Of a stretch of DNA of 32,000 nucleotides, positions 16,724 through 18,437 are shown piece by piece. The position numbers and the translations under genes are program-made. Below the pieces are notes generated by a model. It ran no database searches and was not told the DNA's origin. It saw nothing but the letters and a program-made list of their open reading frames with translations. The stretch covers positions 960,001-992,000 of the forward strand of contig NZ_LN885086.1 in the NCBI RefSeq assembly GCF_001458695.1, written 5' to 3'. This stretch comes from Candidatus Nitrospira inopinata. GTDB taxonomy: Bacteria > Nitrospirota > Nitrospiria > Nitrospirales > Nitrospiraceae. Numbering within the stretch: position 1 is the first letter of the stretch; every line of letters begins with the position of its first letter.

Positions 16724-17500
16724 TTATGGCTCCCGCAAGAGCTCCCCGTACTGATCAAGCAGCCGGCCGAGCAGGCGCACAAGACGGGATCGGTGCCGCT
16801 CGAAACTCTCGGCCACGTCGAGAGACAAGGCGGCGCCGGTTTGATCGGCAAGACGTCCCTGCTCCAGCCAAAGCCGGTCGGCATCCGCGCGGATCGCCAT
16901 CGCGCAATCCTTGACGAACCCCAACGACTCCCCGCGATGGATGACGCCGACGTGCGGGTCCCAGCCCGTTTCGGCGATCCGGTCCAGGATCAAGGTATCG
17001 ACGGCCGCGTGAAAGAGGCGACGTTGACGAAGAGCGGCGCCGCGTAGACGGCCGAGACGCTGGACCCATTGTTCATAATCCATGGTCCGCACGCCGTGTC
17101 GTCTCCAGCGAGCGGCAATCACGGCATCCAGGCCGGTCGCCAAGGCCAGCCGTCGCCCCCGTTCCCAGGCCCGTAACCAGCTTGAAACCCGTTCTTGCAC
17201 GGAGGGGTTCTCGATCATCCCGACCTGAAGCCCTCGGCGGGCAAAGAGGCCGGAAGCGCAACTCACGACCATCGCCATTGGTTGCCCGTTTCGACCGACC
17301 AGCGTGACCGGCACTCCCCGCTCGGCGAAGGCCGTCAGGCTCTCGGTGTCGAGCGCGACGTTCCCCGCAATGAGCACGCGCCGAATCAATCGCACCGGCA
17401 CTCGGCGACCGGCCGAGCCAGGCTGTTCGATCCAGAGTGACGGTCCGTCACGGCGGACGGACAGCCCGGGCCGTTCATTGAGAAAGAGAGTCCGATCCAT
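16724..17500 (-). CDS. Cas1-like paralogue, shortened and with eroded active site (258 aa)
   Basis: The N-terminus is collinear with the Cas1 beta-domain (MDRTLFLNERPGLSVRRDGPSLWIEQ...RVLIAGNVALDTESLTAFAERGVPVTLVGRNG). The C-half retains 'GWDPHVGVIHRGESLGFVKDCAMAIR', compared with canonical 'GLDPLIGFYHEIDYGRESLACDLLEPFR'. It lacks the 'RERRPPRDPVNALL' segment. It overlaps the cas1 stop by 26 nt. Confidence 0.65.
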   Translation of the reverse strand: MDRTLFLNERPGLSVRRDGPSLWIEQPGSAGRRVPVRLIRRVLIAGNVALDTESLTAFAERGVPVTLVGRNGQPMAMVVSCASGLFARRGLQVGMIENPSVQERVSSWLRAWERGRRLALATGLDAVIAARWRRHGVRTMDYEQWVQRLGRLRGAALRQRRLFHAAVDTLILDRIAETGWDPHVGVIHRGESLGFVKDCAMAIRADADRLWLEQGRLADQTGAALSLDVAESFERHRSRLVRLLGRLLDQYGELLREP

Positions 17501-18437
17501 CGTTCACCAACCGCCTGGCCAAGGCCTCGACCGTCTCCCGCAGGCGAGGTCGATGTTGCGCCATCCACTGGTCATAGGCCTGGTAGTAATGGCCGCGCGC
17601 CGCTTTCTTGAGCGAACAGCCGGGCCGGTCCTGATCCGAGGCGAAGTTTCGCGCTTCGAACTGTCGCTCGCGGAACAGCATCCAGACCCAGTGATCGATC
17701 ACCGGCCGAAAGGGCTCCAACAAGTCGCACGCGAGCGACTCGCGGCCATAGTCGATCTCGTGATAGAAGCCGATCAAGGGATCCAACCCGATCAGCTCGC
17801 ACTCGCGAACCCATTCCCAGTGGGCGAGGGTGTAGGTCAACGACAAGAGCGCATTGACCGGATCGCGAGGCGGCCGCCGTTCCCGCCCTCCGAACGCCAG
17901 GCTTGCGGGAAACAGGGACGGCAACGCGGCGAAGTATGCCGCCGCCGCACCCCCTTCCAATCCACGGAGCCGTTCCAGCGTCTCAGCGCCGGTGACTTTC
18001 GCCATGGTCTCCTTGATGACGGTGGCGGCGTGGAGCAACCCGGCCCGCCGGTCTGGTCGGACATCCGCCGTCTCCATGAGGAACGATGCCTGGCCGTCGA
18101 GCTTGGCTGTGATCCATTCCCTCGCCAGAGCCAGGGCCATCGGACTCCGATAGGCATCGTATTGAGCGACACGCAGCCGGGCATGATTATGCAGGCGACC
18201 GATCACGCGGCCGCGGAACGAGAGGCTGCGCCCTGACAAAAACAGCACGGAGATCCCTTGCTCCGCCAGACGGTGCAGCAGGGCCGTCTCGACCGTCTGC
18301 CGGCCGATCACCACGAGCCGGTCCACCGGCGCGAGCGGCACCATGCCGTCCCGTTCGCCGTTCACATAGACCGCCAAGGCTCCGCCGTCCAGCCGAAGTT
18401 CCGCGTCTGTTCTGTCCAGATAGACGGTGCCGCCCAT
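17475..18437 (-). CDS. cas1: CRISPR-associated integrase Cas1 (320 aa)
   Basis: All Cas1 hallmarks are present: 'LRGLEGGAAAAYF' (Glu), 'GGRERRPPRDPVNALLSLTYTL', and 'GLDPLIGFYHEIDYGRESLACDLLEPFRPVID' (His, Asp/Glu). Confidence 0.92.
   Translation of the reverse strand: MGGTVYLDRTDAELRLDGGALAVYVNGERDGMVPLAPVDRLVVIGRQTVETALLHRLAEQGISVLFLSGRSLSFRGRVIGRLHNHARLRVAQYDAYRSPMALALAREWITAKLDGQASFLMETADVRPDRRAGLLHAATVIKETMAKVTGAETLERLRGLEGGAAAAYFAALPSLFPASLAFGGRERRPPRDPVNALLSLTYTLAHWEWVRECELIGLDPLIGFYHEIDYGRESLACDLLEPFRPVIDHWVWMLFRERQFEARNFASDQDRPGCSLKKAARGHYYQAYDQWMAQHRPRLRETVEALARRLVNDGSDSLSQ

Follow-up and report, generated by a model that had tools for sequence, protein, structure and literature searches.

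Tandem cas1 genes for an intact and a degenerate Cas1 in a type III CRISPR adaptation module of Candidatus Nitrospira inopinata: a candidate heteromeric integrase

To our knowledge, every structurally studied integrase of CRISPR adaptation consists of a single kind of Cas1 and a single kind of Cas2, and its functional asymmetry, between catalytic and non-catalytic Cas1 protomers and between leader-side and spacer-side attack, comes from conformation and DNA context only. In the canonical Cas1(4)-Cas2(2) complexes (Escherichia coli type I-E, Enterococcus faecalis and Streptococcus thermophilus type II-A, Synechocystis), a single gene supplies the four Cas1 subunits, each of them with the active site; each Cas1 dimer of the solved integrases has a catalytic and a non-catalytic protomer (PMC6895254, PMC7969031). 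The locus analysed here lies in a stretch of 32,000 nucleotides (nt) of Candidatus Nitrospira inopinata (NCBI RefSeq assembly GCF_001458695.1, contig NZ_LN885086.1, positions 960,001 to 992,000), hereafter called the window, in whose numbering all coordinates are given. Its adaptation proteins share with the canonical complexes both protein folds and the link to CRISPR arrays, but a separate, degenerate Cas1, termed Cas1', is encoded directly after an intact Cas1, and two different cas2 genes are present. The conservation and the eroded active site of Cas1' are described below, and the protein is considered as a candidate structural subunit of a heteromeric integrase.

Two distinct Cas2 proteins have been described in the type III-D adaptation module of Vibrio vulnificus, where Cas2A and Cas2B are both required for spacer acquisition and a heterodimer was proposed (PMC6821258); this requirement provides a precedent for a Cas2 heteromer in the present locus. 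Both are type III adaptation modules with two Cas2, but the single Cas1 of V. vulnificus is fused to a reverse transcriptase (RT) and is not accompanied by a second Cas1, whereas the module of the window has two Cas1 genes and no RT. No RT was seen in the cassette loci examined, and the 320-amino-acid (aa) Cas1 of the window is devoid of an RT fusion. Outside CRISPR adaptation, the evolutionary logic proposed here for Cas1 and Cas1' is that of the archaeal tRNA-splicing endonucleases, in which an alpha4 homo-oligomer, with active sites at work in only part of its protomers, evolved by duplication into an (alpha-beta)2 assembly of catalytic and structural paralogues; fold and chemistry are unrelated, and the comparison serves as an analogy only.

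The closest catalogued family is the PADLOC-DB profile PDLC01185, annotated as "Cas1, diverged variant, second in the loci". Since this profile exists, a second, diverged Cas1 had already been catalogued by curators. As in that family, Cas1' is a short Cas1-like protein (~250 aa) whose gene stands immediately behind a canonical cas1, beside type III genes, and it comes second in the window, in all 38 homologous loci that include the upstream flank and in the distant-branch loci L040, L045 and L047. The match of the window protein to PDLC01185 is weak (6e-6, 24 bits; residues 19-247 against positions 15-234 of a 246-position profile), and generic Cas1 models outscore it on the N-terminal domain; for the distant-branch relatives found with a profile of the window family, PDLC01185 is the top match (1e-14 to 4e-26). 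The window protein differs from the catalogued family by its place in a sister branch with motifs of its own (DGPSxW, DPHxGxxH). It was rated as a member of an uncharacterised branch, sister to a family already in the catalogue, and its locus as a module of CRISPR adaptation whose subunits are paralogous and specialised.

An earlier note on this DNA, made by a model from the letters alone, knew of no described module of this kind. As far as cataloguing is concerned, PDLC01185 qualifies this statement; it stands with regard to function, as full-text literature searches returned no paper on the function, catalytic status or conservation of the second Cas1, or on a Cas2A/Cas2B pairing with it. 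No mention of a second diverged Cas1 was found in the accessible parts of the 2025 CRISPR classification paper and its supplements. A contig of an Antarctic-soil Acidobacteriota, listed without comment with the gene order cas2-cas1-cas1-RT-csm3gr7-csm3gr7-csm3gr7-cas10 (PMC11742911), may be another tandem-Cas1 type III module, in this case with a reverse transcriptase.

The first gene of the pair, cas1 (17475..18437, minus strand), encodes the 320-aa protein. This protein matches PF01867 over its full length (3.6e-76), has no other Pfam domain, and scores 204 bits against TIGR00287 (cut-off 71.7), in agreement with the textbook Cas1 recognised in the earlier note. E161, H226, D238 and E241 were invariant in 30 out of 30 orthologues (non-redundant loci), and the motif RxRRPPxDPVNA is invariant across the partner Cas1 family. 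On these grounds the gene product is classed as a canonical Cas1, a catalytically intact subunit of an integrase in which none of the four active-site residues is missing.

The second gene, cas1' (16724..17500, minus strand, 258 aa), is recognised by the same models over parts of its product. PF01867 matches residues 11-100 only (1.9e-10, 40.8 bits, for a gathering score of 22.3), TIGR00287 gives 41.3 bits, under its cut-off, and residues 165-207, the His/Asp region, match the I-E (E. coli-type) Cas1 model (1.8e-6). Pairwise BLASTP between Cas1 and Cas1' aligned only the N-terminal 68 residues (1e-4), and a single-sequence phmmer search of Cas1' against the PDB was borderline (E=1). As both methods were too weak, profiles and structure were needed. 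Alignment of the Cas1' family with the partner Cas1 family using hhalign gave a 98% probability (E 2e-13, 213 columns), and a profile search against PDB sequences aligned the Cas1' family with Thermotoga maritima and E. coli Cas1.

An AlphaFold2 (AF2) model of Cas1', built from an alignment of 32 family members, reached a mean predicted local distance difference test score of 90.9 and a predicted template modelling (TM) score of 0.89. In a Foldseek search of this model against the PDB, the best 50 matches listed were all Cas1 or a casposase, with TM values of 0.67-0.73, E ~5e-10 and 13-20% identity over ~270-310 columns that include both domains. Cas1' is thus modelled as a complete two-domain Cas1 fold (N-terminal beta and C-terminal helical). 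Model, Foldseek and hhalign agree that the second gene encodes a genuine paralogue of Cas1, as had been proposed from the letters, and exclude the outcome that it has no Cas1 hit.

Active-site residues of Cas1 and Cas1' were matched using the PDB-sequence profile alignment and hhalign, which agree. Cas1 H226 (E. coli H208) and D238 (E. coli D218) correspond to His188 and Asp198 of Cas1'. Cas1 E161 (E. coli E141, in GLEGGAAAAY) corresponds to His135, in RRHGVRTMDY, and Cas1 E241 (E. coli D221) to Met201. Cas1' therefore lacks two of three metal ligands (the Glu and the last acid) and retains His188 and Asp198. The earlier note had described such a half-eroded site, with a His and an Asp kept and a Met as last ligand, and this description is borne out, to the exclusion of a paralogue with all catalytic residues intact; its assignment of the lost Glu to an Arg in RLRGAAL was wrong, the true equivalent being His135. 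The loss of the Arg-rich segment, which the note had placed in a single deletion of about 30 aa, was likewise found, but as two blocks in the hhalign alignment: 28 aa (Cas1 ~128-155, ahead of the Glu motif) and 12 aa (Cas1 181-192, AFGGRERRPPRD). With these two blocks missing, Cas1' has lost the RxRRPPxDPVNA motif.

This pattern is not particular to the window protein. Among the 30 non-redundant loci, the Glu position of Cas1' holds E in 7 and the last acidic position E or D in 3; the His at position 188 is kept in 21 and the Asp at position 198 in 29. The same pattern was found in 188 representatives of a wider superfamily, in which the distant branch loses the His as well. What is conserved throughout these 188 representatives is a DGP[SA] motif, Pro35, Asp198 and Glu234. 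A conserved metal-binding active site is absent from the family, the equivalents of E141 and D221 being variable, and Cas1' is probably not catalytic.

A different explanation would be that Cas1' is still an enzyme, with a remodelled site (His183, His188, Asp198) and a nuclease or integrase chemistry such as prespacer trimming. In the close family (131 representatives), His183 is indeed conserved in 109, His188 in 82 and Asp198 in 126. However, neither His183 nor His188 is conserved in the distant branch, which occupies the same cassette, and the equivalents of E141 and D221 are missing together with RxRRPPxDPVNA. In the Cas1 proteins studied, mutating the equivalent of E141 or of D221 abolishes activity. 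A remodelled enzyme was consequently considered very unlikely.

A homology search retrieved 67 relatives of Cas1', nearly constant in length and with identities down to 28%. A profile search in a database of 1.84 billion representatives gave 74 Cas1' clusters (50% identity) with E<=1e-30, a number that rises to 316 for E<=1e-10, and nearly all of the best 150 clusters have a length of 250-295 aa. The hosts are Nitrospira and other Nitrospiraceae, other Nitrospirota, Thermodesulfovibrionales, Syntrophorhabdaceae and other "Deltaproteobacteria", and an Acidoferrales metagenome-assembled genome. Across these lineages cas1' is an intact open reading frame (ORF) of 252-296 aa, down to 24-30% identity.

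Ratios of nonsynonymous to synonymous substitution rates (dN/dS) between the window and nine relatives were 0.13-0.23 for cas1' and 0.13-0.24 for cas1, and were thus indistinguishable; those of cas2B, the cas2 gene downstream of cas1', and of cas6 were 0.06-0.23 and 0.12-0.22. At greater depth dN was higher for cas1' than for cas1 (0.31 vs 0.18), a faster divergence that is expected once the catalytic constraint is lost and a function retained. The ratios indicate that cas1' is under purifying selection, and a pseudogene was rejected on this basis. The idea of a decaying duplicate, in which Cas1' would be a functionless pseudogene in progress, can call upon its shorter length, its missing catalytic residues and its dN at depth, but is effectively refuted: the ORF is intact across lineages, the AF2 model is confident, and motifs such as DGPS, P35, D198 and E234 vary little or not at all. 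The checks on conservation and selection suggested in the earlier note thus led to the same conclusion, that of a maintained gene.

Four minus-strand ORFs are tightly packed at the locus: cas1, cas1', cas2B (16435..16713, 92 aa; PF09827 4.8e-16, PADLOC Cas2 8.6e-19) and cas6, for a crRNA-processing endoribonuclease of the AF_1859/PF10040 type (15428..16438, 336 aa; PF10040 2.1e-19, PADLOC Cas6 3.1e-99). The ORFs of cas1 and cas1' overlap by 26 nt, the stop codon of cas1' (TAA) is separated by 10 nt from the ATG of cas2B at 16713, and cas6 starts with the GTG of a GTGA overlap with cas2B. The positions of the cas1 pair and these spacings had been given in the earlier note and were recovered on the sequence, and the paralogue, which overlaps cas1 and is closely followed by cas2B, lies within the operon and is not a stray copy, as stated there. 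The module extends beyond the interval that heads the note (16724-18437) and includes a second, distinct Cas2 gene, cas2A (30324..30602, minus strand, 92 aa; PADLOC Cas2 4.5e-17), and, directly upstream of cas2A, a csm6-like type III ancillary gene (30614..31882, minus strand, 422 aa, 6H and HEPN domains; PF09670 8.2e-37, PF22205 4.9e-10), at 11.9 kb from cas1. A programmed frameshift that would fuse Cas1 to Cas1' was discarded as an explanation: a start codon of its own precedes cas1', and the two proteins align at their N-termini, the one of Cas1' being conserved as M-[DE]-[RK]-T-L-[YF]-L.

For comparison between loci, cas1 and cas1' were assigned by position and length and then aligned separately. 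In 38 of the 38 loci with upstream flank, cas1' directly follows cas1, mostly with overlapping ORFs, and this overlap is retained by almost every lineage of the close family; the partner cas1 has a length of 319-344 aa in these loci, except in one decayed lineage (L006/L007). A cas2B gene follows cas1' in 40 of 40 loci. Most loci have an additional cas2 directly upstream of cas1 and a cas6 of the PF10040/AF_1859 type nearby, the position of cas6 being unchanged in relatives. cas2A abuts cas1 in L001, L003, L004 and L019-L040, and three distant-branch members that were looked up (L040, L045 and L047) have the identical cas2-cas1-cas1'-cas2 cassette, in 3 out of 3 cases. Cas2A and Cas2B are reciprocally monophyletic and differ in their C-terminal tails, with a mean identity of 66% within Cas2A, 57% within Cas2B and 31% between the two. 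The ancestral module is reconstructed from these gene orders as cas2A-cas1-cas1'-cas2B(-cas6), with type III (Csm) genes and CRISPR arrays as neighbours. Because this four-gene cassette is conserved and comprises two monophyletic Cas2 families, a multi-subunit integrase fits better than a simple duplication.

The decayed cassette was seen in two independent samples (L006, positions 5380-6486, and L007). Here the initial ~32 codons of cas2A run, through a deletion, straight into the middle of cas1 (from ~residue 80), which leaves a 231-aa Cas1 without the N-terminal domain; cas1', cas2B and an array of 11 repeats are intact.

In the window, cas2A and cas1 are separated by a block of ~11.9 kb (18438..30323, plus strand) that lies outside the CRISPR system. 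The block is present in the window clade (L010-L018, L041-L044); it is not present in L004, L019-L024 and others, in which cas2A adjoins cas1. Locus L004 has the order csm6-cas2A-cas1-cas1'-cas2B-cas6 and shares its HtrA, two-component and GcvP flanking genes with the window, and the csm6-cas2A order is common to L003, L004 and L041-L044. Comparison of these gene orders indicates that the block was inserted between cas2A and cas1 in the window clade.

The gene order, by pairing cas2A with cas1 and cas1' with cas2B, also suggests a module made of two complexes: a conventional Cas1-Cas2A integrase, and a non-catalytic Cas1'-Cas2B accessory that would act, for example, in prespacer capture or protection, in leader or repeat recognition, or in the regulation of adaptation. 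The C-terminal tail of Cas2 docks on Cas1 in known complexes, so that the differing tails of Cas2A and Cas2B point in the same direction, as does the window clade, where cas2A stands in a transcription unit separate from that of cas1-cas1'-cas2B. In that same clade, however, cas1 is parted from its presumed partner cas2A and yet still overlaps cas1', in keeping with the overlap retained in nearly all of the close family. Moreover, no cas1'-cas2B without cas1 was found among the loci seen, the nearest case being the decayed L006/L007. Two separate complexes were regarded as possible, though rather unlikely.

The same gene order and the two Cas2 tails, each of which might be specific for one type of Cas1, would also fit a one-ended, asymmetric integrase, in which a Cas1 homodimer and a Cas1' homodimer are joined by Cas2A-Cas2B and strand transfer takes place at one end. 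Such an arrangement appears improbable: in all systems studied, full-site integration requires two transesterifications, one per Cas1 dimer (PMC6895254), so that a complex active at one end would get no further than the half-site, and no observation bears directly in its favour.

The module is assigned, on the gene content of related loci, to a type III (Csm-type) CRISPR-Cas locus. In relatives, the neighbours of the cassette are Cas10 (with HD, Csm1_B and palm2 domains), Csm2, RAMPs, Card1, Csx1 and Csm6; inside the window, the csm6-like gene is the sole type III gene. No CRISPR array was found within the 32-kb window. Four public contigs, GCA_001458755.1 among them, match the window at 100% identity over 11.7 kb (20324-32000); L041, L042 and L044 are among the identical ones. 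In the identical contigs an array whose repeats number 90 or at least 96 ends ~1.8 kb past window position 32000, and the absence of an array from the window is consequently an edge effect. This array consists of a 36-nt repeat (GATGGGATTCCGACCTGAAGAAAAAGGGATTAAGAC) with spacers of 32-40 nt, and Card1 and RAMP genes lie beyond it. CRISPR arrays adjoin many of the cassettes, with up to 108 repeats.

Strains with identical cas flanks have 90, at least 96 or 2 repeats, and the strain with 2 repeats retains only the csm6-proximal (trailer) spacer. The arrays of L041 and L042 differ by internal spacer insertions and deletions, and L004, which has the same 36-nt repeat, has no spacers in common with the arrays of L041, L042 and L044. 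From the differing repeat counts and the lack of common spacers it follows that the arrays have turned over. Among the arrays of the distant lineages L001, L004, L006 and L041, the 3' end of the repeat, AAAAAGGGATT[AG][AC]GAC, is common and the remainder differs; this common end could be a recognition element of Cas6 or of the integrase.

Taking as observed the fold, the missing catalytic residues and RxRRPPxDPVNA motif, the conservation, the purifying selection, the constant pairing and ORF overlap with an intact cas1, and the association with arrays of differing spacer content, the explanation towards which we lean, with moderate confidence, is that Cas1' serves, without catalysis of its own, as a structural component of a heteromeric type III integrase made of Cas1, Cas1', Cas2A and Cas2B; the co-assembly of the four proteins, their stoichiometry and the absence of catalysis by Cas1' are what we infer from these data. 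According to this proposal, duplication would have been followed by a subfunctionalisation of Cas1 into a catalytic and a structural paralogue. The intact Cas1 would provide the active sites (E161/H226/D238/E241), Cas1' would fill the position of the non-catalytic protomer in the Cas1 dimer, and Cas2A and Cas2B would form the central bridge. The N-terminal domain, by which Cas1 makes its dimer and Cas2 contacts in known complexes, is retained in Cas1'. The conformational division of labour of the homomeric Cas1(4)-Cas2(2) would in this way become fixed in separate genes. A hard-wired heteromeric integrase had been suggested as a possibility in the earlier note, and the present data support that reading in part.

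Structures of the homomeric enzymes describe what such a subunit would do. In the catalytic protomer, an "arginine channel" takes up the prespacer's 3' overhang, and the 5' overhang points to the non-catalytic Cas1 (PMC7969031), which touches both DNA and Cas2 (PMC7969031, PMC6895254). The RxRRPPxDPVNA motif, conserved in the partner Cas1 and deleted in Cas1', may form this channel.

Several points weigh against the structural-subunit explanation. The contact between Cas1 and Cas1' is itself an inferred one, and the order cas2A-cas1 / cas1'-cas2B fits equally well with two sub-complexes or with Cas1(2)-Cas2A/B-Cas1'(2). The good conservation of His188, Asp198 and the family-specific His183 in the close family may reflect residual metal binding or an altered activity. 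In the window, cas2A belongs to a different transcription unit, at a distance of 11.9 kb, which means that strict co-expression of the four genes is not guaranteed. Finally, near-identical strains differ by internal insertions or deletions of spacers, which do not look like polar additions and are no proof of recent acquisition.

A more specific version of the heteromeric integrase would be an obligate (Cas1-Cas1')2-(Cas2A-Cas2B) complex, in which the Cas2 heterodimer breaks the two-fold symmetry and makes the integrase intrinsically polar. This version is put forward tentatively and is, in our estimation, unlikely. If true, a polar integrase could tell leader-side from spacer-side attack, or set spacer orientation, without a protospacer adjacent motif (PAM), in type III systems.

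Around the module, other features of the window were recorded. The block 18438-30323 is a plus-strand operon with a 2304-aa ORF, a 658-aa ORF, two homologues of SCO1/SenC copper chaperones and a 472-aa ORF with weak cytochrome c matches. The 2304-aa protein has no Pfam match; by eye, it contains a multicopper-oxidase-like HCHxxxHxxxxM motif (FHCHFYPHFAQGM). Related Nitrospira share this conserved block, and their giant ORF measures 2241-2304 aa. Further away, at 5304-7556 (plus strand), a 750-aa ORF consists of at least 13 tandem repeats of 150 nt (50 aa) with 60-77% DNA identity; it gave weak matches to DUF1936 and DUF7947 and has no relation to CRISPR genes.

Scans for promoter and terminator consensus sequences around cas1 and cas2A gave nothing above shuffle expectation. 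At 15370-15395, between the convergent genes for cas6 and an HtrA-like protease, a perfect G+C-rich hairpin (GGGCGCGGGCC-GAAC-GGCCCGCGCCC) was noticed, which has no T-run and is for that reason absent from the list of the terminator scan; it may be a bidirectional terminator.

Public annotation labels the products of both cas1 and cas1' "Cas1", so that counts of adaptation-competent loci and Cas1 phylogenies may mix paralogues. A module of this kind would add a case of pseudoenzyme subfunctionalisation within CRISPR adaptation. Separate genes for the catalytic and the non-catalytic Cas1, along with two Cas2, would permit the role of each protomer to be mutated independently, and the module could bear on integration polarity and spacer orientation in type III systems, which are PAM-less.

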